DNA of 64,000 nt from a virus, in the IMG/VR virus record IMGVR_UViG_3300034082_004296, positions 32,001-96,000 of that record; one strand, given 5' to 3'. The notes under the pieces were generated by a model. That model was not told where the DNA came from and searched no databases. It worked only from the letters and a program-made list of their open reading frames with translations. Position 1 is the first letter of the stretch. Each line of letters opens with the position of its first letter. Below, one piece after another: positions 1 to 45,948 of this stretch. Position numbers and translations under genes: made by a program.

Positions 1-903
1 GTTCTTACCTGCCATATCACTATCGAATAGGATTAAGGTATTTGATTTGCTTAATAGGTTTTCTAACAAGAGTTTGCTTTTAGAAATACCAGTAGTTGCA
101 ATAGAATTATTTAGGAACATTGAATCTATTTGACCTTCAGTCACTAGAATAGGTTTTGAAAAGTCAACATTCAATACATTAAAATAATTATTGATCGAGT
201 CAATATCAGCAATAATGTCATCTTCGACATTTCGAACAAGTCCGTTCTTTTTTAACTCAGAATAGTTTTTAATTAGATATTTTGGTCCACTGATTCCTTC
301 TCCAATTCGACGTATTGCAAAGCCTAGGATCTTACCAGTTCGTTGGTCTAGATTAAAAAGATAGATTTTATCCTCTCTTGAATCAAAATAACTGCACCTT
401 TGAAATGCAGGAAGAGTGTCAAGGGCTCGATTCTTTATGAATAGTCCAAGTTCAGTGTCTGGATCAATCTCACTACATGGAGTCAATGAAAATCGAAGAG
501 CTACCTCTTCTATTTTTAAGAGATGATCGCTTGCGCTTTTATTGATTAGAAGTTCAATTAACGATCCTCTCTTCTTTTTAGAAGTTTGGGGTGTCCACTT
601 GACTTGGGCCTTGACATCAGGTAAACCTAATGAATATTTGAGCGCAAACTTAGAGATAAACTTAGGAATATCTGATTTTACTCCACATCCATCATTATAA
701 CATTTATAGAAACCTCGATCTGGATATATGTTACCTCTCTTTTTTCTGGAATCTGTTTTAGAATCACCACAATATGGGCAGGCAAAATTGATCTTATCGC
801 CAGATTCATATACCTCCTGTTTAAATCGATCTTCTGGAAATCTTTTCTTTAGGACATCCTTTATAAAGCTATATATGTTATAACCCGTCAATAGATCAAG
901 CAT
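1..903 (-). CDS. DNA primase (T4 gp61-like), runs off the window edge
   Basis: Not in the ORF track. My translation from ATG 903 gives MLDLLTGY...INFACPYCGDSKTDSRKKRG...YKCYNDGC (Zn finger) and VTEGQIDSMFL...LFDSD (TOPRIM). It overlaps the polymerase stop by 8 nt. Confidence 0.92.
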   Translation of the reverse strand, partial: MLDLLTGYNIYSFIKDVLKKRFPEDRFKQEVYESGDKINFACPYCGDSKTDSRKKRGNIYPDRGFYKCYNDGCGVKSDIPKFISKFALKYSLGLPDVKAQVKWTPQTSKKKRGSLIELLINKSASDHLLKIEEVALRFSLTPCSEIDPDTELGLFIKNRALDTLPAFQRCSYFDSREDKIYLFNLDQRTGKILGFAIRRIGEGISGPKYLIKNYSELKKNGLVRNVEDDIIADIDSINNYFNVLNVDFSKPILVTEGQIDSMFLNNSIATTGISKSKLLLENLLSKSNTLILFDSDMAGKN

Positions 904-2332
904 TTTCCTCCTCTTCTAATTCAAGAACAGGGTTTGCTTTTTCCTTCTTCTTCGTCATTCTTTTCAAATACTTATCGAGTTCAGGTTTTGGAACTATTGT
1001 AGTATTTAGGCCATATCGAGTAATGACTCCCAAGTATTCCTGAAAATCTTCCTCAGCTACATCAACATCAGCATTGCCGATTACCTTCCAGAATTTTTCT
1101 GGAACTTCAATGTATTCTAGTGTTTCTTGATCCACTATGTATAGAGGGTAGATATCAGCATCAGTCAATACTTTTTTACTCTTGACGGTTACTACTTCAA
1201 CTGCACGTTTTAAATTAGTATCAAGCGAGCTCATCTTCATTGCAGTAAGTAATCGATTTATTGGTTCAATTATTAGGGAAAAGAACTGTGAATCGATATC
1301 CATTAATAGAGCGATCTCGTCAGGATAGGTTCCAGGTGAGTATGCAAATACATCATGTCCGCCTTCATTTGTTTCAGGATTACAGTAGTAAAACTTGATC
1401 TTGTCCTTTTCTCTAATCTTAGGATATTTCTCAATAAGTCCAGTCTTAATTAGGATATGATTATAGATGGCGGCAGCTCGAGGAAAGATCGAGATTCCTT
1501 TCTTAAGTTCAAGTCTCTCTTCACTCGTGATATACTTATTATAGACTCGAATATTGAAATTAAATGCTAATTCATCTGGATGAAGAGAACGGGCTTCATT
1601 TTTAAGAACAGTTAGTCGAGGAATAATATCTTTTTCAATATCGAGTCGCTTACCTCGATCCATAATAAAGGAGGTAAGTTCAGTTAGTTTGTCTCGAGCC
1701 CAAATCGGATAAGAACCCTTAACTGGTTCAAGACCTTTGATTATCAAGTATCTCTTTTCTTGTGGTTCTAATTCATAATTTGGATTAGGTTCGTATGCCA
1801 CTCGAATAGCATAGTTTTTCTTTTTAAGCCAAATGCCAGTCTCTGACAAGTTTTCTAATTTAAACTTAAGTCGGTTTTTAGTATTAAATACTTTTCCATA
1901 TTTCTCAAAGCACATATCAAAATAATTGGAAAGTCGATGTCGGTCAATATTGATACAGATATTTAGTGCTTCATCTTTTGAAAAATCTGCACCAATGATT
2001 GAATCTAGGGCAGAGTCAAACTGTACATAGATTGAATCAGTATCGGTGTAAATAGCAGCTTCATCCTCAATCTTATTAATAGTATACCCATCGATTCCTA
2101 ATAATTTATGGAGTTCAGTGTCAAGATGCCACTTTTCTAGAAAATAGTGATTTACTGCCTTAATTGAAAACTTGATTAGATCTTGGCCCTGTAGAGTGAT
2201 TGACTGTGCGATATCTGGATTGTAGAAATAGAACCACTTATTCCCAAATGCTCCATAAATAGAGTTAATTAAGATCTTTATCGCGTTTTGCTTTAGATCA
2301 AGTTTTTTAATATGTTTTTCTTTATCTTCCAT
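896..2332 (-). CDS. Family B DNA polymerase, C-terminal part (gp43B-like)
   Basis: Motif B KILINSIYG near the N-terminus, motif C YTDTDS, KKNYA and IKGLE. No exonuclease domain or motif A. Confidence 0.93.
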   Translation of the reverse strand: MEDKEKHIKKLDLKQNAIKILINSIYGAFGNKWFYFYNPDIAQSITLQGQDLIKFSIKAVNHYFLEKWHLDTELHKLLGIDGYTINKIEDEAAIYTDTDSIYVQFDSALDSIIGADFSKDEALNICINIDRHRLSNYFDMCFEKYGKVFNTKNRLKFKLENLSETGIWLKKKNYAIRVAYEPNPNYELEPQEKRYLIIKGLEPVKGSYPIWARDKLTELTSFIMDRGKRLDIEKDIIPRLTVLKNEARSLHPDELAFNFNIRVYNKYITSEERLELKKGISIFPRAAAIYNHILIKTGLIEKYPKIREKDKIKFYYCNPETNEGGHDVFAYSPGTYPDEIALLMDIDSQFFSLIIEPINRLLTAMKMSSLDTNLKRAVEVVTVKSKKVLTDADIYPLYIVDQETLEYIEVPEKFWKVIGNADVDVAEEDFQEYLGVITRYGLNTTIVPKPELDKYLKRMTKKKEKANPVLELEEEENA

Positions 2333-29836: not shown

Positions 29837-31204
29837 TTAGCTATTATACTCTTTTTGAAGTGCTTTTTTCAATTCTTGTAAATCTTCTCGATACATGTTC
29901 AGAGGCTCCTTCTTCTTAATCTCTTCAAGTTCCCTCTCTTTTTGAAACTCAGCACTTATTAAGTCTTCATATGTTTCCTTAGTAAGTGAATGAATCGGCA
30001 TCCCTAATAGGTATTGATATGATCCATTTATCTCATCAAAGTTATCTGTCTCCAAGTAGAGAATTATCTCTTTTCTAGGAACATTATTGATCTTTAACTT
30101 ACCCTCAATTATGGCTTTTACGAAACGTGCTCTATTTGAGAGTAGAGCGAGTTCTTGATTTAGAGTATCAATAATAAATTGCTTTCTCTTTTCATAAAAA
30201 GTGAGCCTAAATTGAACGAAATATTCAATAATCTCACTGGCTGAATTAAAGATTTTTAATTTACCGTGTTCGTCCAATACTGTAAAGTTCTCAGTCTGGC
30301 GTTCTTCCATCTTTAGGAGTCTCTTTAATCTTACTGAGTCACCTAACATCTTAAGATCTTCTCGTCTAAACTTAAGAACATAATTGATGTTAGACTTGCA
30401 GTTATTTTCGTAACTTGCAATTCTTCGGGAATCTTCAAGATCGATTAAGTGCTGGTCGAATTTTTCATAAGTAACAGAAGGAGGAAGCTCTGTAATATTC
30501 ACAGTCGTGGTATTTTTTACTTCATACTTTCCACTAAATATCCATGAAAACTTTTCGGGGTCTATTAGTTCGCAACCTCCAATAAACTCTCTGTTCCATG
30601 GAGTAGGTTCAGCATATTTTTTACCCTCTAGAGATTTTAAACAGGCATCGATTAGGCTAATTGGATTGCGATTTAATATATTTGTTGCGAAGCCTACTGC
30701 AATCCCGCTACCGCCATTCAGGAGGACAGTTGGGATAATAGGTAAGAAATATTTAGGTTCGATCTCATTGCCTTCCTCGTATCGAGATTCTAATAATTCA
30801 AAATCTTTATATAGGAGTCTAAAGTTCTTATGTAACTTGGTTGCTATATAACGAGGAGCGGCTGCTTCTGGCGAACGTAAGGATCCAAACTGACCAATAT
30901 CTTCTAATACTGGCATTGAGTTCTTAAACCTTTGTGCCATGCCAATAATTGCTGAATTAAGAGAGCCGTCTCCATGGTGATAAAAAGCGTCTGCCGCCAC
31001 CCGACCGGCTAATTGAAAGATCTTCATTGGTTTTTCTGAACCGTTCTTCCATACTTTATTTGCAACAAAGATTACTTTGCGTTGAGTTGGCTTGAATCCA
31101 TCGATCACTGATGGAATTGCCCGCTCTTCAACGACATATACTGCATACTCCTTATAGTCGTTATCTAAATAGTCGGTTACTGTCTTTATTTCTGGCTTTC
31201 GCAT
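29837..31204 (-). CDS. DNA topoisomerase II, GyrA/ParC-like subunit (gp52)
   Basis: RAIPSVIDGFKPTQRK, YHHGD, AAPRY (catalytic Tyr), GIAVGFAT. Confidence 0.96.
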   Translation of the reverse strand: MRKPEIKTVTDYLDNDYKEYAVYVVEERAIPSVIDGFKPTQRKVIFVANKVWKNGSEKPMKIFQLAGRVAADAFYHHGDGSLNSAIIGMAQRFKNSMPVLEDIGQFGSLRSPEAAAPRYIATKLHKNFRLLYKDFELLESRYEEGNEIEPKYFLPIIPTVLLNGGSGIAVGFATNILNRNPISLIDACLKSLEGKKYAEPTPWNREFIGGCELIDPEKFSWIFSGKYEVKNTTTVNITELPPSVTYEKFDQHLIDLEDSRRIASYENNCKSNINYVLKFRREDLKMLGDSVRLKRLLKMEERQTENFTVLDEHGKLKIFNSASEIIEYFVQFRLTFYEKRKQFIIDTLNQELALLSNRARFVKAIIEGKLKINNVPRKEIILYLETDNFDEINGSYQYLLGMPIHSLTKETYEDLISAEFQKERELEEIKKKEPLNMYREDLQELKKALQKEYNS

Positions 31205-31675: not shown

Positions 31676-33538
31676 TTAGTTATTTCCAAGGATTCTGTCC
31701 TTTCGTGGTTGAGAATCCTTACCAAACCATGACTCAAGTGAGTCTCGATAGTCTTTATCGTTCTTGATTTGCACAAGATAAGGATTTTTGATTATTTCTT
31801 CGTATTCGGCGTCCTCGAGGGCTCCCAATCCCTTTTTGTATTCGATTTCCCAAGAAGAGGTCTTATTCTTCCTCAGCCAGGCATCAAACTCTTCATTTGT
31901 GTAAAAATTAAGTGAGTCTTTGCCTTTTTTAGCGACAACTAGTGGAGTCATTACCTTGTATACCCTACCTTGGTCAAAAAGTTCGGGCCAAAAGCGATTA
32001 AAAAAGTTAATTAAGGTTGCTGCAATGTGACTACCGTCAGGATCGGCGTCAGTATAGATATAGATGCGACCGTAGCGTAGTCCTTTAGGTTCTTCGCCTA
32101 ATTTTAGTCCCAGGGAGGCCATTAACTGCACGGCTTCGTCATTTTTAGCGATTTCAGAGGGTTTCATCTCACTTACATTGATAAATTTACCCTTTAGAGG
32201 AAATGCACCAATTATTTGAGTGTCTCTAAACTTACGAACTGCTGAAACTGCTGAAAGACCTTCATATATGCCTAGGATACATACTCCGCGGTCACCTTTG
32301 CGTTGTGCATCGATCAATTTAGGTATTTTTGTCTTATCTAGGTCCTTATTTAGCTTTCTGAGCTCAGCTCTCTCTTGAGCAAGGGCTTTTTTCTCTATCC
32401 AATCTAGGACCGACTGTATTATTTCAGACTTAAAGACTAGTTTTGCTAACTTATCTGTCACTTCGTGCTTAGTTCCGAAATCTTTGACCTCAGTGATCAG
32501 TTTTTCCTTAGTTTGTGAGCTAAAGAATGAATTTACAATAGTCGAATCGATAAAAACGTATATGTGATTGCGGATATCGCTTGGCTTGACGTCGACTTTG
32601 TGTTTTTTCTTGATCATCTCTCTTAATTGAGCGATTAATTGATTAGTAATGTACTCTACGTGAGTTCCGCCATCTTTAGTATGTACTGAATTGACAAAAC
32701 TTACGTTTTGAAAGCCATTTTCAGACTTTGCAAAGCCTATTTTCCAATCTTTGGTCTCTTCAAAAAAGTATTCTTGAGCATAGAGCTGGATATATTCCTC
32801 AAAGCTCTTAAATTTAAGAACAAAATCCTCTTTTTTACCGTCCTTGACCTTAGTTAGCTTCAAGGTAAGCTTGTTATTACATGCAACTAGGTCCAAGCAA
32901 CGTTTAAAAAGTATCTGAAAAGACTTTTCGTCAATTAATCGCATCTTAAATCGTTCAAGGTCCGGAAAAAATGAGATTTCGGTGAATCCACGCTTGGCTG
33001 GGGTGATCTTTGCAGTAGTTCGTTTTCCCATATTGTCAGTAAAGACTTGGTCAAATCGGTTTTTACCATCACATGTGGAAATAGTGAACTTTTTGCTAAA
33101 TATATTAGTTAAAGTGGAACCAACACCATTTGTTCCGGCAACAGTACGCTGTTCTGAGTCATCAAAGTTGGATCCAGCCTTTAGATTTGAGAAAATCATT
33201 TCAGGAATCCATTCTTTATGGACTGGGTGTTTTTCTACTGGAATTCCGCCGTTATCCCATACTGAGATTTCAGTAGTGTCTAAATTAATCGTCACCCTAA
33301 TCTCATTCAGTTTAGGATTTCGACGATGTTCATCTACCGAATTTGAAACAATCTCATCAAATAATTTAATAAAGCCCGGATTATAGTGAACCTCTTCAAC
33401 CGTTACCTTCTCTCCATCATATAGATGTTGCTCTCCAGTATGGATAGCGACTGATCCAATATACATTGATGGTCTGAGCAAAACATGCTCAATGTCAGTC
33501 AGTTTTTGATATTTTGTTTCTATTGATTTTTTAGCCAT
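31676..33538 (-). CDS. DNA topoisomerase II, ATPase/TOPRIM subunit (unsplit gp39+gp60)
   Basis: EHVLLRP, EIVSNSVDE, GTNGVG, EGLSA, PLKGK, DADPDGSHI, YKKGLG. Confidence 0.96.
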   Translation of the reverse strand: MAKKSIETKYQKLTDIEHVLLRPSMYIGSVAIHTGEQHLYDGEKVTVEEVHYNPGFIKLFDEIVSNSVDEHRRNPKLNEIRVTINLDTTEISVWDNGGIPVEKHPVHKEWIPEMIFSNLKAGSNFDDSEQRTVAGTNGVGSTLTNIFSKKFTISTCDGKNRFDQVFTDNMGKRTTAKITPAKRGFTEISFFPDLERFKMRLIDEKSFQILFKRCLDLVACNNKLTLKLTKVKDGKKEDFVLKFKSFEEYIQLYAQEYFFEETKDWKIGFAKSENGFQNVSFVNSVHTKDGGTHVEYITNQLIAQLREMIKKKHKVDVKPSDIRNHIYVFIDSTIVNSFFSSQTKEKLITEVKDFGTKHEVTDKLAKLVFKSEIIQSVLDWIEKKALAQERAELRKLNKDLDKTKIPKLIDAQRKGDRGVCILGIYEGLSAVSAVRKFRDTQIIGAFPLKGKFINVSEMKPSEIAKNDEAVQLMASLGLKLGEEPKGLRYGRIYIYTDADPDGSHIAATLINFFNRFWPELFDQGRVYKVMTPLVVAKKGKDSLNFYTNEEFDAWLRKNKTSSWEIEYKKGLGALEDAEYEEIIKNPYLVQIKNDKDYRDSLESWFGKDSQPRKDRILGNN

Positions 33539-35130
33539 TATTTCTTTGCTAATTTTTTTACTTTTAGTGCGTCTAAAAAGTATTTAGGCACGTTTTTATT
33601 TTCTAGGATTTGGTCAAAACACTCGTCTAATATGTAGGTCTCTGCCCAATCGTCATCATTTCTTATTGATCTACCATATGCTTGTAAAAGGTCCACCAGG
33701 GTCTTCCAATTATACCACTCTGGTCGAGTTTCAAGTCTCTTCTTAATCTTTGTACTAACAAGATTAGGAAAAGGTACTTTTAGGATTACTTGAAAACGAG
33801 AAAGTTCGTCTTTTAGATCGACTCCATTAATCATCGATGGTGAGACTAGGACAGTTTCTATTTTTGAAGTAAGGTGATCCTCTAGTGACTTTTCTCTAGT
33901 TATTGAATCATGGAATATTAAACGAACATCTTGAATAGAGTTTTGAATCCACTTACTAAACTCATAATTCGCTGTGTGGATAATACCCTTATGTTCGTGG
34001 TTCTTTTCTAGGATCTTACCAATTATTGGTACTGCTCTAGCAAAAGTCTCCTTCTTATTATAATAGGACATTTTACCGAATCTTACGTAGATTACAGGTC
34101 GAGCTTCAGCTTTAAATGGACAAGGTAATGCAAGATAGGTTGACTCATGGTCCTCAACTCCCATAATAAATGAAAATAACTCTCGATCAAGTAGTGTACC
34201 TGACATTAGGATCACATGGTCATACTGGTCCCAAAATAACTCTTTAAGATAGAGATTTCCCCAAATGGGTTCAACTAAGATTCGGGTCTTGCCATACTGG
34301 TCTAGGTCCTTTTCAAAAGTCCAATTAGTCTTGTAGTTTTCTCGATCGTTGACGAATCTGTTGTATTTACACATTGACTTATCGACGTGATCGGCTTTCT
34401 TAATTAGATCAATCTTTTTTTTCTTAGCTCGGGTTTCCTTAGCTTCCTCCAATAACTCATAGGCTTTTTGCTCAAGTAAGGGAACAAGTATATCTTTAGT
34501 CCAGTCTGAAAGTTCAGTCAAGCTTGAAATATTATCGAGGTCTCGTTCCATCCAATCTTGCCAGACATCTAATATCTTTAAACTGCGTTCAGAATAGGTA
34601 GAGAGGATAAAATCACAAAAGGTCTCCTCAAAAGCATGAGCCTCATCAATTATAAGAAGTTTAGAATTACGCTCAGCCATCATCTCTGGAGAATACATTG
34701 AGTATGCTGTCACTAGATGAAAATTGGCTAGACTTACTGGGCTCTTTAAAAACTTTGATTGTGCGATCTTATGAGGACAGATAGTACAACGCTTTTCATT
34801 TGCTTTATTTATGACTTGAGCATCACCGCAACCCATACCTTGAGTACGACACCAGTAATTGTTCTTGCCCTTAAGATTGGCTGCAAAACCAAAGTCTTTT
34901 ACGTATTGATCTTGTAGGATTTTAGTATTGGTAATAATATCAGTTTTGGCCTTTTTTGAGTGTTCACCTCGATACCACTCAGCAATCATGATCGCGGCAT
35001 ATGATTTTCCAACTCCAGTGGGAGCATCCACCATGATAAATTTCTTTCCATCCTTAATAGAAGACTTTACAAAGTCCAGTATTTGGACCTGTTGAGGTCT
35101 TGGTGAAAACTCAAGAGGGATATCGCTCAT
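33538..35130 (-). CDS. DinG/XPD-like SF2 helicase
   Basis: PRPQQ, APTGVGKS, Cys cluster, DEAH, MSGT, GVDL, QAYGRSIR..DD. Confidence 0.88.
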   Translation of the reverse strand: MSDIPLEFSPRPQQVQILDFVKSSIKDGKKFIMVDAPTGVGKSYAAIMIAEWYRGEHSKKAKTDIITNTKILQDQYVKDFGFAANLKGKNNYWCRTQGMGCGDAQVINKANEKRCTICPHKIAQSKFLKSPVSLANFHLVTAYSMYSPEMMAERNSKLLIIDEAHAFEETFCDFILSTYSERSLKILDVWQDWMERDLDNISSLTELSDWTKDILVPLLEQKAYELLEEAKETRAKKKKIDLIKKADHVDKSMCKYNRFVNDRENYKTNWTFEKDLDQYGKTRILVEPIWGNLYLKELFWDQYDHVILMSGTLLDRELFSFIMGVEDHESTYLALPCPFKAEARPVIYVRFGKMSYYNKKETFARAVPIIGKILEKNHEHKGIIHTANYEFSKWIQNSIQDVRLIFHDSITREKSLEDHLTSKIETVLVSPSMINGVDLKDELSRFQVILKVPFPNLVSTKIKKRLETRPEWYNWKTLVDLLQAYGRSIRNDDDWAETYILDECFDQILENKNVPKYFLDALKVKKLAKK

Positions 35131-35309
35131 GTAGTAGTTTCTAGTTTTATTATTATCTTTTTAATGTCCTGATGAATCTCCCTTATTTCTAAGGCAAGTT
35201 CATTGTTAGAATCAGCCTTTTCCATGGAGGAGGAAACCCGTCGACAACACTCTCTAATTATCGCAAGTTCACGTTTTGAAAGCTTGGGGCCAAGTAGTTT
35301 TCTTAACAT
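35127..35309 (-). CDS. Hypothetical protein
   Basis: 60-aa ORF; TATAAATA upstream on the - strand (35317-35324). Confidence 0.55.
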   Translation of the reverse strand: MLRKLLGPKLSKRELAIIRECCRRVSSSMEKADSNNELALEIREIHQDIKKIIIKLETTT

Positions 35310-35342: not shown

Positions 35343-36143
35343 TCAAAATTGCTCACTGGTTTCAATTTGGATAGGATGATACCACATTCTGCGACCGTTC
35401 TTGTCGGTAAACCAGTGGCCCTTGCCATAACACTTCATCCACTCATCAAAACCGCTAGGTTGGATATCAAATGGATTTTCCCAATCCTTTAATTGACCTC
35501 CTCCAAGAAAGTATGCCTCTCGAGGAAGCCGTTCGCATAGGTCTAGGATAGATGGGTTCATAGTGATTGCGGTACGAGCATCCACAAAAGGATCCTGTGC
35601 TGCATGGAAAACTATCTCAGCTCTAAGATAGTTGCCAATTCCGTTAAAGTATTGCTGGTTCATGAGCACCAGGTGAATCGGCTTATTAAATTCCTTCTTG
35701 CCTAGGTTAGCGAAGATATTCTCCCTAAAAAGCCTAGATTCATGTACTGGACACGGCCCTCTATTTTGGGACCAATCAGTAGCAACATTCCACCTAGCAA
35801 ATCGACGAGTGTCAACCAAGCATAGACTATGCTGATCAACAGTATTGAATTTCATGTGAGTATGTTTTGGTACAGCATCACGGTGACATAGCGCCCAGTG
35901 ACCAGACATGCCCATCGAGCAGCTGATCTTCATAAAGACCTCACCTCCTTGAATTAGGGAGAGCATGAGCTCCTTGCCTCGAGATTCAGCAGTAATACTG
36001 AATATCTGAAGGTCAGTCGGCTGGACTATACCTAGTTTTCGATTCATGGCACTTTCTGAAAAGGAGATTGATGTAAAATTCCTTTCTCTGCAGGCTAGAT
36101 TTATGAAATCCGCCATTATTTTTATCTCTGCAAGTTCTGGCAT
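35343..36143 (-). CDS. nei: Fpg/Nei-family DNA glycosylase/AP lyase, NEIL1-like
   Basis: MPELAE catalytic N-terminus, RGKEL, GMSG, D.RRF, H2TH FNGIGNYLRAEI, zincless finger DKNGRRMWY. Confidence 0.93.
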   Translation of the reverse strand: MPELAEIKIMADFINLACRERNFTSISFSESAMNRKLGIVQPTDLQIFSITAESRGKELMLSLIQGGEVFMKISCSMGMSGHWALCHRDAVPKHTHMKFNTVDQHSLCLVDTRRFARWNVATDWSQNRGPCPVHESRLFRENIFANLGKKEFNKPIHLVLMNQQYFNGIGNYLRAEIVFHAAQDPFVDARTAITMNPSILDLCERLPREAYFLGGGQLKDWENPFDIQPSGFDEWMKCYGKGHWFTDKNGRRMWYHPIQIETSEQF

Positions 36144-36204: not shown

Positions 36205-38172
36205 ATGTCATATTTGTTAAATTATAAAAATTGGAGAGCACTATATGAAAGCCAAACTAATATTTTTGAAGATGGAGAAGACCCATACGGAGGAGTTGGT
36301 ATGATTGATGATACCAAAATCAAAGATAAAGGCACAGTTGATCCATTTGCAGACATGCCAAAAGAGGGCAAGAAAAGATTAGAGTATTTAGTAAATAAAG
36401 CAGGAGACCTAGATTCACAGGCGATAAAAAAGGCAGGAGCAGCGCCAGCAACTTCACTTCTACCCTACGATGCAATAACTGACTGGATGATTACTGCAGG
36501 TAAGCCTACTACAAGGAGCGATGGAAAAGGAGGATATAAAGATTTTTCACCAGAATGGAAGAAAAGATTTAAAGATAGAGAGCCTTCCATGAAATTAGAA
36601 GACTGTATTCAATGTATGCAGTATTGGAATGGAATAATTGATACGACTAAAACAAAAAAAGAAACTATTGAAATAAACGGTAAACCGTATGATGTTGCAA
36701 ATTATGACACTGCTCGAGTAATTAGACAATTGGATCAATTAAGTAATCTCAAAAAAGTTAAATCTTTAGTAGAAGAGGCATGGAAGGCTAAAGGCATTAT
36801 ATATTTTAATACTGGCTCGCCTTCAGAATATGAGTTTGAAGGAACTAAGTATTCTATTGAGAAAGACAAACAGGTAACATTTGACCCAAATTTAATCGTT
36901 GAAAAGAGTAAGATTTTACTAGAAAAAGCGAAAAAAACATTTGTAAACACTGGAAAAACCAGAAGAAATTCAAAGACTGATATGCTTTCTCCAAACCCCA
37001 ATTCAGATAATGTATGGTTTGATACAGGAGAGGGAGGAAAATATTATTCAAAGAAATCTAGAGATCAAACTGGAAGCTTTTGGCTATGGTATCAAATAAT
37101 ATCGGACGATGCTCAATTTCAAAAGTTATTAGCTAGATTCGATGATCCAACTTATGTGAGGACAGTATTCACAAAAATGACGGAGCAGGATAAGATAAAC
37201 ATAATAAAGGGTATTTCGGACGCTGCACAGAAGAAATTTGAGAAAGGATCAGTCGGAGCAATGGAAGGGATCTATGGCGCTACTTCCATCGTGTGGTGGC
37301 CGGTTGAAGCTAAAGAGACGATGCCAAAAACAACGGTCCTTAAACCAGCTAGTCCAGGAATTGACGTTGAATATGAAAATGAATGGGACTTTTCTTGGCC
37401 GTATGCTAAAGAAGGAGGAGTAGGAAAAGAACTTGCAATGACCTACTTTAAGAGTGATTCAGCAATAATACAAGATGGCAAGGACAAAGAGATAGACAAT
37501 GCAGTCAAGCAAATCATGGCTGAAATTAAGAGCAAAAATGGTACTCTTAAATCATTAAAGTATAGAGTAGTAGCATCGACGAGTGACGAACCTTCTAAAT
37601 ATGCAAGCCCTAATAAAGTAGCCGCAAAATACGATATTGCAAATAATCAACCTTTAGTTAGAGACCGTGCTAAGGTAATCGAAACTGCCCTAACTGCTGC
37701 GATCACTGCGAACGGAATTGATCCGACCCTGGTCACTAAAGACGGCGAAGACCTTACTCCTAATAATATTCTAGACGATGGAAGTGCAAAATACCAAGAG
37801 AAAAAATGGATGCGGCTTGATCATAAGGACCCTAGAGCAACGGCTGCTACTGATGCTGAATATAAAGCACTATTCGCTAAACCTAAACATTCAGGGCTTC
37901 TATTTAATATAGTATATACAACCATTGAAAAGGAAAAGAGTGAACCTACTCCTGAAGAAACGACCGTATCTGATTATGAGGTAGTAGGAGAATGGCTATT
38001 CGAGATCAAGTGGGCAGGCGGAGGAAGCTACAAGAAAAAGAGAAGAAGAACTCACACTAGAAGACCGATGAGGGGAATCCCTTGGGATAAATTGTTTCCG
38101 CCTCTTCCTGCAGGTGGAGGATGGAGCGTCGAAGACTTATGTGACGCATATGGTAGATCAGGACCAGGATAG
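36205..38172 (+). CDS. Putative head-packaged protein with OmpA-like C-terminal-type domain
   Basis: ATAAATA 36180-36186; leader MSYLLNYKNWRALYE; YFKSDSAII...VVASTS...NQPLVRDRAKVI fits the OmpA_C pattern. Confidence 0.55.
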   Translation: MSYLLNYKNWRALYESQTNIFEDGEDPYGGVGMIDDTKIKDKGTVDPFADMPKEGKKRLEYLVNKAGDLDSQAIKKAGAAPATSLLPYDAITDWMITAGKPTTRSDGKGGYKDFSPEWKKRFKDREPSMKLEDCIQCMQYWNGIIDTTKTKKETIEINGKPYDVANYDTARVIRQLDQLSNLKKVKSLVEEAWKAKGIIYFNTGSPSEYEFEGTKYSIEKDKQVTFDPNLIVEKSKILLEKAKKTFVNTGKTRRNSKTDMLSPNPNSDNVWFDTGEGGKYYSKKSRDQTGSFWLWYQIISDDAQFQKLLARFDDPTYVRTVFTKMTEQDKINIIKGISDAAQKKFEKGSVGAMEGIYGATSIVWWPVEAKETMPKTTVLKPASPGIDVEYENEWDFSWPYAKEGGVGKELAMTYFKSDSAIIQDGKDKEIDNAVKQIMAEIKSKNGTLKSLKYRVVASTSDEPSKYASPNKVAAKYDIANNQPLVRDRAKVIETALTAAITANGIDPTLVTKDGEDLTPNNILDDGSAKYQEKKWMRLDHKDPRATAATDAEYKALFAKPKHSGLLFNIVYTTIEKEKSEPTPEETTVSDYEVVGEWLFEIKWAGGGSYKKKRRRTHTRRPMRGIPWDKLFPPLPAGGGWSVEDLCDAYGRSGPG

Positions 38173-38176
38173 AGGA

Positions 38177-38779
38177 TCACTCTATTCTGTTAGTTAATAA
38201 TAAAGTGGAAGATATTCGATATCTTCCATTTTTGTTTACATAGACCTTTTGATATACTCCACAAAAGGTAGCCTCCTTCTTTAATAGCTTTGAGTTATGA
38301 CCTGGAGACTCGATCCAATAATTTAGGACACACTGTGCAGCTAACTTAGGATCGACTATTTTGGATCCAATATTTTTAAGCCAAAGATCGCCAACTTTTT
38401 GTTTTGTAGGATCCTTAAATACCATTGGTCCAGCATTAAGACAGTTCTCAGCAATCATGCCGCCTGCTCCTAATTTTACGCCAAATCGTTCAACTCTTGT
38501 TTCAGGAGAGACTAGATTTTCAATAAGATGTAGTGAATCATAATTTCGCTCAAAGTGGCCTCCTTCATCGTATATAGACAGGTATTCGCAATGGTGTTCA
38601 CAAGCACGAGTCGCTTTAGAGTCTAGCTTAAGTGGATTGAGCCCATTTTTTTGACGATATTCATTTATGGCATCAAGTAGAAGAGTTGAGAATTCAGCCT
38701 CAGTAGTTAAAAGGTTTTTAGGAACTTGAGAAAAAGTGATCGTAGAGATCAATAGAAGGGTTAATGTTATTAATTTCAT
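38177..38779 (-). CDS. Secreted CAP (SCP/Tpx-1/Ag5/PR-1) domain protein
   Basis: Start revised to MKLITLTLLLISTITFSQ; INEYRQKNGLNPL, HCEYL, GH, AENC, WIESPGHNSKLL. Confidence 0.85.
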   Translation of the reverse strand: MKLITLTLLLISTITFSQVPKNLLTTEAEFSTLLLDAINEYRQKNGLNPLKLDSKATRACEHHCEYLSIYDEGGHFERNYDSLHLIENLVSPETRVERFGVKLGAGGMIAENCLNAGPMVFKDPTKQKVGDLWLKNIGSKIVDPKLAAQCVLNYWIESPGHNSKLLKKEATFCGVYQKVYVNKNGRYRISSTLLLTNRIE

Positions 38780-38865: not shown

Positions 38866-40410
38866 ATGGGTGGTTATTTATTAAATTATAACAAGTGGAG
38901 AGCTCTATATGAGTCAGCTCAACTAAATGAGGCAATTGAGATACCTGGATTTAATCTTAAACCGGTAGAAAAAGGAAATAAGCTAGTTTCTAGAGTTTCG
39001 TATCCATCACTTGGAATTAATCCAAAATACGATAATGAGCTAAATTCAATCATGACTAAAACAGTCGGTAAGGAGACAATTCCTAAGTTATTTGTAGTAA
39101 ATGGTAGTGAAGTTGATTCTCAGGCTGAATATCGAAAAATATTTACTGCGCTAGTTTATGGAGTGATCCAATATTTTGAAGATGATACATTAAAGGATAA
39201 GATCGATGATATTGCTCCACAACTTAAATTCACAACAACGATTTCAGGTAAAGTACAATTGTATGGTTCAAGTAGTGGAAGGATTAGTACACAAGGACAA
39301 ATTGTGGAACCGAATACTGGTGGGGCAGTCTATATTTCAAACACAGCTGACACTAAAGAGTCATCAGTAATCGGGATATGTAAATATATCAATGGATTTA
39401 ATTTACAGAATTGGATGACAGGTAATTTCCTACAGATAGATCCAACGAAGATTCTTGATCAAAACAATGTAACTGATTTAACTGGAGCGATGAGAGAGGC
39501 ATATGTTGAAGAACGAGGATTCTTACGATTAGTCAGTCCAGCAAGTGCAAGCATTACTGCTGGAGCAAGGGGTACTGAGACTGAAACTGTTCAAGGTGCA
39601 CAGGCGCAAACTGGTAATGCAGAGATTGCATTTACTGCTGGAAAATCAGATATTGATGATAAAGGAGTTAAAGTTGATGCAAATCACCCTAAAGTAAAAG
39701 AGATTGGTGACAAGATCATAGGGTATTTAGGAAACAATGGTGTAATTGATTCAATGACGTTAACCTCATCTGCAAGTCCAGAATATGGATCGATCCAAAA
39801 CGTTGCAGGCTGGGAAAAATCTTATCCTAAGGGGACTACTGGAACAGCTGATCCTGGTGCAGGAGCGGATGACGCTGGTAAAAACATGAAGCTTGCATAC
39901 GATCGAGGAGTCGTATTTAGTAATGCGTTATACGCTTATTTAGGAGGACATGTAAAACAAAATGCAATTGCCGTTTCTTGGAAGATCTCAACTGATGCTC
40001 CAGGAGGAGGAAAGAATATCACTTACTCAGTTGCTACTAAAAGTGAATCTCCACAAACAATCACAAAAACGACTTACCAAGGAGCAAAAGTATCTGTCAA
40101 AAATGAAGATAACTCAATCGTAGTCTATAAGATTACGTATGATGCGTCAGCAATTGCTAAAAATAAAGATGGACTTTTCACAAAAGAACGAATTGATTAT
40201 AATAAATTAAAAGTAGGTGATAAGATCATAGTATACGCTAAGGACATGAAGACTAAACTTGGAAAAGATGAAGATGAACCTGTCACAGTAAGTAAGGTTG
40301 AAGATAATAATGTTTACGTAAATTATAAAGAAAACACCGATATCTTGATACCTAAAGATAGATACATTAAACAAGTAGGAAAAGCTGAAAAGCAAGAAGC
40401 TGAAATCTAA
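38866..40410 (+). CDS. Second putative head-packaged protein with OmpA-like domain
   Basis: ATAAATA 38839-38845; leader MGGYLLNYNKWRALYE; FTAGKSDI...LTSSASPE...NMKLAYDRG. Confidence 0.55.
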   Translation: MGGYLLNYNKWRALYESAQLNEAIEIPGFNLKPVEKGNKLVSRVSYPSLGINPKYDNELNSIMTKTVGKETIPKLFVVNGSEVDSQAEYRKIFTALVYGVIQYFEDDTLKDKIDDIAPQLKFTTTISGKVQLYGSSSGRISTQGQIVEPNTGGAVYISNTADTKESSVIGICKYINGFNLQNWMTGNFLQIDPTKILDQNNVTDLTGAMREAYVEERGFLRLVSPASASITAGARGTETETVQGAQAQTGNAEIAFTAGKSDIDDKGVKVDANHPKVKEIGDKIIGYLGNNGVIDSMTLTSSASPEYGSIQNVAGWEKSYPKGTTGTADPGAGADDAGKNMKLAYDRGVVFSNALYAYLGGHVKQNAIAVSWKISTDAPGGGKNITYSVATKSESPQTITKTTYQGAKVSVKNEDNSIVVYKITYDASAIAKNKDGLFTKERIDYNKLKVGDKIIVYAKDMKTKLGKDEDEPVTVSKVEDNNVYVNYKENTDILIPKDRYIKQVGKAEKQEAEI

Positions 40411-44466: not shown

Positions 44467-44886
44467 CTATATGTCTAGTTTTACAACGTCAATATTTGCA
44501 GCACGCAATATTGTGATTCCAGAAACATCTCGATATGTCTCACGATAAATTACAAGCTTGATTCCTGCCTGGATTATTAGTTTTGAGCACTCCTTACATG
44601 GAGAATAGGTCACATAGAGTGTAGCACCTTCTGTGCTTTGAGTGGATCGAGTCACCTTCATCATTGCATTGGCCTCAGCGTGTAATACATACCAATTAGT
44701 GTCTCCGTTTGCATCTTCACAATCGTTTGGAAAACCCTTAGGCGTGCCGTTAAATCCGTCTGAAATAATGGTACCGTCCTTAACGATTAGAGCACCGACT
44801 TTTTTACGTTTACAACAAGAAAGATTGGACCATTCTGTGGCCATCTTCAAGTAGGTAATATGATATTTAAGATCCTTGTTCGTCAT
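44467..44886 (-). CDS. dCMP deaminase
   Basis: S.C.RKKVGA, GFNGTP, HAEANA, PCKEC. Confidence 0.95.
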   Translation of the reverse strand: MTNKDLKYHITYLKMATEWSNLSCCKRKKVGALIVKDGTIISDGFNGTPKGFPNDCEDANGDTNWYVLHAEANAMMKVTRSTQSTEGATLYVTYSPCKECSKLIIQAGIKLVIYRETYRDVSGITILRAANIDVVKLDI

Positions 44887-45082
44887 TCTTTTCTTTGGGT
44901 TTAACGATACTGTCCGGTGTAAGAGAATAAACTATCGTGACTATTCCTACCCATTGTGGATAAGAGATGACTGATCTAAATACTTTATCTAGACTAGTCC
45001 ATTCATATATGAAATCACAGAGCAAGGAAATTACTAGTAATTTGATGGCTGTTCCAATTATTGATACTATTGCTTTTTTCAC
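44867..45082 (-). CDS. Small membrane protein
   Basis: Two hydrophobic segments. Confidence 0.6.
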   Translation of the reverse strand: MKKAIVSIIGTAIKLLVISLLCDFIYEWTSLDKVFRSVISYPQWVGIVTIVYSLTPDSIVKPKEKNDEQGS

Positions 45083-45948
45083 AGGTTTACGTTTTTAAGA
45101 ATCCAATCATATAGCGGATCAGGTAAGTCAGTTGGCTCATCTTGTCCATCAAAGAGAGATACGAAATTAGAGGTTGGTGTACCGATTATGTTAATTAGAT
45201 CTAGATCGACTTTAGGAATCTCTAAGGGCTCAAACTTACGAGTAATCATCTTCTTTGCGATCTCAAAATGACGCTCGTAGATATGAGAAGAGTTAGCGAT
45301 ATGCGTATATGTACCTAACTCTAATTCAGGATATCCTGCATGGTGACGAAGATGGTTCAGCATCTGCGATTGTAGGATAGCAAAGAATGCAATATCTGTA
45401 GGAAGTCCCAAGATCACATCATTGCTGCGCATGCTCACAGTAAGGTTAAGCTTATTATTTCTGATCTGAAAGATTCCATACATTGTACATACAAAATCCT
45501 TATTTCCTTGTCTCTGATGGGTAGGCAGGTTAAAGTGCAGGACAGCCTGTCGTGAATCCTTGTCTTGAGCTAATGATTCAAGTGCCCATTGATATTGAGT
45601 AAAACCGTGTTCATTCTGGTTATTAAATAGCAGATTGCCGTATGAAGAGTTTACAGTATCATCTTCATTTTTAATAGATTCCCAAAACTTTGCGTATTTT
45701 GCGATATATTCAACATCATTTCTACCCATAAAATACCATAGAAATTCTGCAGCAATATACTTGGATTGAGAAGACCTAAACTCGTTTCTATAGAGACACG
45801 AAAGAGGATCTTCAATCACCAATGCTACATCACACATTTCATTGATCCTCATGTCCCGAGGCTGAGTCACATATTCTGGACTAGTCATCAATTCATGTAA
45901 GAGTTCTTCGTATGCGGCAGCAAAGGAATTTGCTTGAATTATTACCAT
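45079..45948 (-). CDS. Thymidylate-synthase-fold enzyme, probably dCMP hydroxymethylase/methylase (gp42-like)
   Basis: DSRQA, DFVCT (catalytic Cys), MRSNDVILGLPTD (Asp at the specificity position), HIYERHF. Confidence 0.8.
   Translation of the reverse strand: MVIIQANSFAAAYEELLHELMTSPEYVTQPRDMRINEMCDVALVIEDPLSCLYRNEFRSSQSKYIAAEFLWYFMGRNDVEYIAKYAKFWESIKNEDDTVNSSYGNLLFNNQNEHGFTQYQWALESLAQDKDSRQAVLHFNLPTHQRQGNKDFVCTMYGIFQIRNNKLNLTVSMRSNDVILGLPTDIAFFAILQSQMLNHLRHHAGYPELELGTYTHIANSSHIYERHFEIAKKMITRKFEPLEIPKVDLDLINIIGTPTSNFVSLFDGQDEPTDLPDPLYDWILKNVNL

Follow-up and report, generated by a model that had tools for sequence, protein, structure and literature searches.

Does a gene of an uncultured tailed phage, lying on the minus strand at positions 35343–36143 of the stretch analysed here, code for a DNA glycosylase that belongs with animal NEIL1 rather than with the Fpg/Nei enzymes of bacteria, and which role would such an enzyme play in a phage? 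The stretch, hereafter the window, is 64,000 nt long and corresponds to positions 32,001 to 96,000 of the IMG/VR virus record IMGVR_UViG_3300034082_004296 (176,210 bp, with an estimated completeness of ~70%). Genes for a major head protein, a head protease and a tail sheath identify the element as a tailed myophage. The gene in question encodes a protein of 266 aa, starting with MPELAEIK, which an initial annotation, made without database searches, had described as closer to metazoan NEIL1 than to bacterial Fpg/Nei.

Identification of a NEIL1-type glycosylase in a phage genome

When the protein was compared by phmmer with all PDB chains, human NEIL1 was the top match (E 1.2e-46, 162 bits). Much lower scores were obtained for Fpg of Thermus (E 6.2e-7, 32 bits) and Lactococcus (E 1.4e-5), mimivirus MvNei1 (E 5.5e-4, 22 bits), the plant FPG of Arabidopsis (E 0.011), E. 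coli Nei (E 0.27) and NEIL2 (E 0.38), and no match to NEIL3 was found up to E 10. Identity to mammal-like NEIL1 representatives is 38–39%. The nine motif pairs listed in the initial annotation against human NEIL1 were all retrieved in the phmmer alignment (FINLAC/FVNEAC, SRGKELML/ARGKELRL, PKHTHMKF/PRHAHLRF, LCLVDTRRFARW/LCFVDIRRFGRW, RGPCP/RGPCV, FRENIF/FRENVL, YFNGIGNYLRAEI/FFNGIGNYLRAEI, WMKCYG/WLRCYG and DKNGRRMWY/DRHGRTIWF), and their agreement with human NEIL1 far exceeds chance. Among profile searches, the Fpg N-terminal domain PF01149 was recognised with an E value of 4.6e-14 (53.5 bits, against a cut-off of 25.5 bits). The NCBIfam equivalogs were not reached, either for Fpg (NF002211, 68 bits against a cut-off of 212; TIGR00577, 62.8 bits against 203) or for Nei (NF007763, 40 bits against 252), and the sole PHROGs match was phrog_21295, annotated as 'unknown function' (54 bits).

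No CxxC pair is present within the last 80 residues and C238 is the only cysteine among the last 60, so that the protein has no Cys4 zinc finger, in agreement with the NEIL1-like zincless finger proposed earlier. The corresponding beta-hairpin (residues 243–255; nt 35379–35417, minus strand) carries Arg251, the counterpart of human NEIL1 Arg277.

Residue conservation was assessed on three alignments, with 30, 87 and 126 members of the family, and equivalences to human NEIL1 were read from the phmmer alignment. The N-terminal nucleophile Pro2 and the catalytic acid Glu3 (codons at nt 36135–36140, minus strand), equivalent to NEIL1 P2 and E3, are invariant, as is the catalytic lysine Lys57 in the RGKEL motif (codon at nt 35973–35975, minus strand), which corresponds to human Lys54. 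In ~90% or more of the family rows are found E6, which belongs to the catalytic N-terminus and is equivalent to NEIL1 E6, the gap-filling triad M79, R113 and F115 (NEIL1 M81, R118 and F120), N171 (N176) and R251; in the phage-type rows of the 126-member alignment, R251 and W254 each reach 99%. The protein's helix-two-turn-helix (H2TH) DNA-binding motif (residues 163–177; nt 35613–35657, minus strand), including Q163, N167, G168, G170, N171, Y172 and R174, is almost identical to that of NEIL1 and conserved in the phage-type and eukaryotic clades alike, with Q163 (NEIL1 Q168) present in all rows.

An AlphaFold2 model, built on an 87-sequence alignment, showed high confidence scores (predicted local distance difference test, pLDDT, 95.7; predicted template modelling score, pTM, 0.91). 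The H2TH helices are seen in the model, together with the C-terminal beta-hairpin, formed by strands 243–246 and 252–255. Foldseek searches with this model returned human NEIL1 for all top matches (E 3e-25), with template modelling (TM) scores of 0.81–0.86 across the top 31 ranks. In an independent all-against-representatives structural search, NEIL1 scored a Z of 30.4, with a root-mean-square deviation of 2.0 Å over 251 residues and 37% identity. The remaining members of the superfamily had lower Z values: 23.7 for Thermus Fpg, 23.6 for MvNei1, 23.5 for E. coli Fpg, 20.9 for Arabidopsis FPG, 20.5 for 4MB7 ('a viral DNA glycosylase'), 20.4 for E. coli Nei, 19.4 for NEIL3, 18.8 for M. smegmatis Nei2 and 12.2 for NEIL2.

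Phylogenetic trees were inferred with FastTree (137 rows) and IQ-TREE (LG+C20 with posterior mean site frequencies, PMSF; 86 rows), using a small outgroup made of E. coli Fpg, E. coli Nei and four zinc-finger homologues; NEIL2 and NEIL3, actinobacterial Nei, plant Fpg and giant-virus Nei were kept outside the trees and compared by PDB sequence and structure scores only. The NEIL1-like sequences, including the phage protein, were separated from the outgroup with a support of 99 (FastTree) and 96 (IQ-TREE). A position within bacterial Fpg/Nei, which the initial annotation had named as the outcome that would speak against its view, was therefore not observed. Sequence scores, structural comparison and trees agree in placing the protein closer to NEIL1 than to bacterial Fpg/Nei, and support its assignment to the NEIL1 type rather than to ordinary Fpg/Nei.

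Comparison with known enzymes

The phage protein is collinear with human and metazoan NEIL1 (PDB 1TDH, 4NRV, 5ITQ–5ITY, 6LWA–6LWR and 8FTJ) throughout the catalytic domain and shares with it the catalytic residues, the gap-filling triad, the H2TH motif and the zinc-free hairpin, NEIL1 being also its best structural match. It differs in its length (266 aa against about 390), in parts of its sequence considered below, and in being encoded by a tailed phage, in a clade that may be sister to eukaryotic NEIL1 and not inside it. MvNei1 (PDB 3A42, 3A45 and 3A46), an Fpg/Nei enzyme that is likewise encoded by a virus and has a zincless finger, has already been published as a viral NEIL1 orthologue (PMC3188539). 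The two proteins have the same fold, but their identity is only 20%, with 22 bits as compared with the 162 bits of human NEIL1; moreover, MvNei1 comes from a giant eukaryotic virus and lies outside the metazoan NEIL1 clade (PMC3188539), whereas the phage protein groups with NEIL1. With bacterial Fpg/MutM and Nei (E. coli, Thermus, Lactococcus) it has in common the superfamily, the fold and the catalytic N-terminus; these enzymes, however, possess the Cys4 zinc finger that the phage protein lacks, and are split from its group by the well-supported branch described above. The NEIL1-like genes of 'Ca. Poribacteria' belong to the same zinc-free subfamily but, unlike the phage gene, are chromosomal.

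The enzyme class is not new, since automated pipelines label such genes 'endonuclease VIII-like 1'; what is new is its distribution and relationship. No relevant paper was found by a literature search on phage NEIL1.

A conserved gene at the head of a replication block

The glycosylase gene is the first of a conserved minus-strand block. It is followed by a small open reading frame (ORF) of 60 aa (nt 35127–35309) with no Pfam or PHROG match, whose position is kept in 11 close relatives (49–82% identity), and then by a DinG/Rad3-like helicase (nt 33538–35130; phrog_2488, E 2e-96; Helicase_C_2 and ResIII domains), the large subunit of a T4-type topoisomerase II (nt 31676–33538; phrog_543, E 2e-194) and its medium subunit (nt 29837–31204; phrog_551, E 2e-143), all on the minus strand. 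Besides both topoisomerase II subunits, the T4-like replication genes of this phage include gp46/47-like SbcCD, a DnaB-like helicase and a family-B polymerase.

In IMG/VR, 358 relatives of the glycosylase were confirmed, and synteny was counted in the best 80 loci. The DinG-like helicase follows the glycosylase in 54 of these 80 loci, while the large and medium topoisomerase II subunits are syntenic in 46 and 32 of them, respectively. In the reverse search, starting from the helicase, 35 loci combined sufficient upstream DNA with a helicase identity of at least 71%, and every one of them had the glycosylase within 5 kb; none of the three loci with a helicase identity of 61–62% did. Pairwise ratios of nonsynonymous to synonymous substitution rates (dN/dS) against relatives were 0.07–0.11, which indicates purifying selection. 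The glycosylase is a real, conserved phage gene.

Within the syntenic lineage (L017–L068), the glycosylase diverges markedly faster than its neighbours, with identities of 55–86% as compared with 64–95% for the helicase and 70–96% for topoisomerase II, despite a dN/dS near 0.1. The survey of IMG/VR loci gave 74–96% for the neighbours.

Proposed role in repair of phage DNA

The intact catalytic set, the fold, the purifying selection and the position at the head of a replication block make a working glycosylase/apurinic-apyrimidinic (AP) lyase the most likely product of this gene, as judged from sequence and model. We propose, with a probability of about 0.75, that it is a compact NEIL1-type bifunctional enzyme, most likely clearing oxidised bases from the phage's own replicating DNA. 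That the DNA repaired would be replicating phage DNA is suggested by the place of the gene, first in a conserved block with the DinG-like helicase and topoisomerase II.

According to this proposal, Met1 would be removed and the amine of Pro2 would attack C1' of the flipped-out damaged base, assisted by Glu3 and Lys57, with formation of a Schiff base and cutting of the strand by beta,delta-elimination. The space vacated in the helix would be taken up by Met79, Arg113 and Phe115, while the H2TH motif and Arg251 of the zinc-free beta-hairpin would hold the phosphates of the lesion strand. The predicted substrates are oxidised pyrimidines, formamidopyrimidines and hydantoins in replicating phage DNA, and the enzyme would act beside the UvdE, ligase and recombination nucleases of the phage.

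The same genome does encode an ATP-dependent ligase; neither an NAD-dependent ligase nor an HhH-GPD glycosylase was found in the 176-kb record, which at ~70% completeness does not prove their absence. It also encodes a UvdE/UvsE ultraviolet-damage endonuclease, outside the window, at positions 107612–108412 (minus strand) of the record (PF03851, 186 bits; TIGR00629, 172 bits, above cut-off; catalogued as G000:C1 and L116). A UvdE gene lies directly beside the NEIL1-like gene in L007 and L113/L114, contigs of unrelated phages, suggesting that the two form a recurrent phage repair pair. This adjacency in unrelated phages, together with the presence of UvdE and ligase in the genome studied here, supports a repair role.

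Several observations weigh against the proposed reading. The Pfam H2TH profile scored 23.6 bits, under its gathering cut-off of 34.7 bits, so that this motif is recognised by alignment and structure and not by the Pfam threshold. Similarly, PF09292 (Neil1-DNA_bind) remained below its 25-bit cut-off, with 19.2 bits (21.1 bits in the genome scan), although a match to this domain is precomputed for many close relatives of the protein. In the counterpart of the lesion-recognition loop (residues 213–225; nt 35469–35507, minus strand), G216 and L218 align to human K/R242 and Y244, and the phage clade conserves a loop motif of its own, GGGQLKDWxNP. Indeed, in the 126-member alignment Y211, G215 and G216 are kept in at least 85% of the phage-type rows, while the commonest eukaryotic residue at these positions accounts for 24–37%; among eukaryotic NEIL1, too, the loop varies. 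Given this departure from NEIL1, the substrate range may differ. The C-terminal tail, disordered and ~100 aa long in mammals, is absent, the phage protein stopping 10 residues past the zincless finger, and so is the insert of ~20 residues that follows the H2TH helix of NEIL1. In human NEIL1 the tail docks the enzyme on replication proteins. Upstream of the gene, a sigma-70-like promoter (TTCATA-17-TATAAT; nt 36221–36249, minus strand; ~80 nt from the start codon) is a consensus match only, such sites being not above shuffled expectation. PNK3P, a 3'-phosphatase for the ends left by beta,delta-elimination, was not found in the 176-kb record, which, with the record ~70% complete, is not proof of absence. 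Finally, the data show family membership, intact residues, fold, purifying selection and synteny, and from these the enzymatic activity, the substrates and the biological role are predicted.

If the repair role is correct, large aquatic phages keep a base-excision repair of their own beside their replication genes. The family would also offer small, naturally tail-less NEIL1 variants for structure–function study of lesion recognition.

Alternative explanations

A first alternative, put forward in part by the initial annotation, connects the enzyme to a modified cytosine. It would be specialised for the decay products of a hydroxymethylated genome, namely 5-hydroxymethyluracil (5hmU) from deaminated 5-hydroxymethylcytosine (5hmC), 5-formylcytosine and 5-carboxylcytosine (5fC/5caC), and 5-hydroxycytosine-type lesions, thus being part of a modified-cytosine lifestyle and not of general oxidative repair. 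The genomic context is in accordance with this idea. A homologue of deoxycytidine monophosphate (dCMP) hydroxymethylase, with a thymidylate-synthase fold, is encoded 9 kb from the glycosylase (nt 45079–45948, minus strand); its best PDB match is T4 gp42 (1.5e-20), it has retained the catalytic Cys (FVCT motif) and an Asp that aligns with Asp179 of T4 gp42, and it falls below all the ThyA equivalog cut-offs. A dCMP deaminase is located beside it (nt 44467–44886, minus strand; phrog_174, E 2e-52). Neither a canonical ThyA nor ThyX was found in the incomplete 176-kb record, and the DNA of this phage may, from its gene content, contain 5hmC or a derivative. The hydroxymethylase gene lies 5–8 kb from the glycosylase in 34 of the 80 IMG/VR loci, and the conserved lesion-loop motif proper to the phage clade counts in favour of the idea as well.

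The co-occurrence is, however, explained by the shared ancestry of one syntenic lineage. Moreover, four more distant phages bearing a NEIL1-like gene, G066 (318 kb, 96% complete), G068, G070 and G072, possess a canonical ThyA (~300 bits) alone, a hydroxymethylase-like gene being absent, so that the link with 5hmC is not obligate, and the Poribacteria NEIL1-like genes sit among ordinary chromosomal genes. A specialisation of the enzyme for lesions of a modified cytosine, as part of a modified-cytosine lifestyle, appears unlikely. Another relative, G074, carries both ThyA and a hydroxymethylase-like gene.

A second alternative sees the enzyme as a weapon or a counter-defence, which would introduce nicks into the host's DNA where it is damaged or abasic, and so favour the breakdown of the host genome, or would process abasic sites produced by host defence glycosylases. 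The enzyme is an AP lyase by family, and the phage may shield its own DNA through cytosine modification. Nonetheless, no hint of another target is given by the sequence, in which the residues for catalysis and DNA binding are those of repair enzymes; the gene lies among replication genes and not among host-takeover genes, related genes adjoin UvdE repair genes, and the phage would be harmed, not helped, if its own DNA were cut at abasic sites. We consider this explanation very improbable.

An artefact, by which eukaryotic contamination or chimeric assembly would have brought part of a eukaryotic NEIL1 into a phage contig, could be imagined in that the best named matches are eukaryotic, but it is already refuted by the dN/dS of 0.07–0.11 within the phage lineage and by the synteny seen in both IMG/VR and the helicase-first search, with the same gene and gene order in dozens of independent metagenome contigs, and it is also at odds with the identity of only 38–39% to mammal-like NEIL1, a local GC content of 0.40, inside the range of the window, and the lack of introns.

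Distribution of the family

In a protein collection clustered at 90%, 1,334 matches were found, many of them named 'endonuclease VIII-like 1' by the Joint Genome Institute (JGI). An exhaustive search of 50% representatives yielded 1,054 matches, 135 of which were under 1e-30, and revealed two kinds of protein. Those of the first kind are ~250–300 aa long, have starts such as MPE[LI]AE and are carried by phage-like contigs; ESM Atlas clusters of this description were assigned for 63–95% to 'Viruses', Uroviricota being the commonest, and the gene contexts sampled included HNH, UvdE, clamp loader, T4 portal and ligase genes. The contigs of P0201 and P0205, ~1 kb long, gave no information on gene context. 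Proteins of the second kind are 350–790 aa long, with starts like MPEGPELHLAS, and come from Metazoa (Sycon, Hypsibius, Callithrix) and Amoebozoa (Mastigella, Pelomyxa, Endostelium), besides one euglenid transcript and one MMETSP transcript. A Planoprotostelium row is shorter (289 aa), yet it groups with the NEIL1 sequences of Amoebozoa.

No NEIL1-like gene was found in GenBank phages (INPHARED, 50,697 records, very near records possibly having been left out). The only tblastn matches there were four mislabelled Listeria Fpg fragments (27% identity), which were discarded. Megablast of 12 kb against the INPHARED phages gave no match either, and no cultured relative was found. The phage-borne NEIL1-like family is thus large and, among the viruses searched, found only in uncultured phages.

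In cellular genomes the gene is rare. A motif-based scan of 185,579 prokaryotic species genomes detected 11 NEIL1-like loci, all in metagenome-assembled genomes (MAGs). A locus in a Saprospirales MAG (L007) was rejected as a bacterial gene, its contig being phage-like (clamp loader, 5'-3' exonuclease, UvdE), L006 gave no information on this point, and only the 'Ca. Poribacteria' loci appear chromosomal among the MAG matches. The latter genes, from marine MAGs (L008–L015, e.g., L013:6001–6813), are 37–41% identical to the phage protein. Their neighbourhood, conserved in order, comprises two sulfatases, an RlmL-like methyltransferase, a YkuD transpeptidase and a GFO/IDH oxidoreductase, and these conserved cellular neighbours indicate a cellular chromosome and not a phage. 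In all three Poribacteria MAGs searched the NEIL1-like gene was the sole Fpg/Nei-family match, while other genomes of the same phylum have a zinc-finger homologue instead; it looks like the bacterial enzyme was replaced in Poribacteria by the phage-type one.

Two further observations regard the surroundings of NEIL1-like genes in phage contigs. Genes for SmpB-like proteins (PF01668), partner of transfer-messenger RNA (tmRNA), lie near the NEIL1-like gene in two unrelated contigs (L113:9878–10321 and L115:6034–6486), and sulfotransferase-domain genes (PF00685; L113:2799–4962) are separated by a few genes from both the NEIL1-like gene and one for an HD-domain protein.

Relationship to eukaryotic NEIL1

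In previous work, NEIL1 was treated as a metazoan clade ('MeNeil1'), with MvNei1 placed outside (PMC3188539), and H2TH glycosylases, missing from Archaea, were regarded as candidates for eukaryotic acquisition from mitochondria (PMC8307549); phage H2TH glycosylases are not discussed in the latter paper. In our IQ-TREE analysis, the eukaryotes formed one clade with a support of 97, including one unnamed metagenomic row of 305 aa. The phage protein fell within a small phage clade (support 98–99), and a clade of Poribacteria and Marinimicrobia was recovered inside the phage radiation with a support of 99.

In the free, outgroup-rooted trees the eukaryotes were nested among phage sequences. A topology with all 56 phage and bacterial rows constrained to one clade was not rejected by the approximately unbiased (AU) test (p 0.63); the constrained tree was indeed 17.8 log-likelihood units better than the free tree, and for this reason the nesting of eukaryotes inside phages was dropped as a conclusion. 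It can be safely stated that the phage/bacterial family and the eukaryotic NEIL1 of Metazoa and Amoebozoa are mutual closest relatives.

Since one clade is common to phages, a few bacteria and eukaryotes, some cross-domain transfer is implied. To this extent, and in general terms, the horizontal exchange suggested by the initial annotation is supported. A recent transfer involving this phage is not borne out, as the protein lies deep in the phage lineage and is distant in sequence from mammal-like NEIL1. It is possible, albeit doubtful, that eukaryotic NEIL1 (animals and Amoebozoa) descends from a lineage of zinc-free glycosylases of phages and bacteria: the rooting of the free trees agrees with a descent from phages, and under the AU test a simple sister relationship or a transfer the other way is just as possible. 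Were this descent true, a core human enzyme of base-excision repair would have come from the gene pool of tailed phages, with the compact phage enzymes representing the ancestral, tail-less form of NEIL1. In either case, the nearest relatives of NEIL1 are a large family in uncultured large phages, present also in a few marine bacteria and in Amoebozoa, and the origin of NEIL1 and of its zincless finger becomes testable with real sister sequences.

Other features of the window

The match of an ORF at nt 896–2332 (minus strand) to family-B DNA polymerases was confined to their C-terminal half (phrog_262, profile positions 500–841), which is consistent with a split polymerase. Two large plus-strand genes (nt 36205–38172 and 38866–40410), with no Pfam or PHROG match, share a near-identical N-terminal leader, YLLNY..WRALYES, and a CAP-domain protein (PF00188) is encoded at nt 38177–38779 on the minus strand, tail-to-tail with the first of them.

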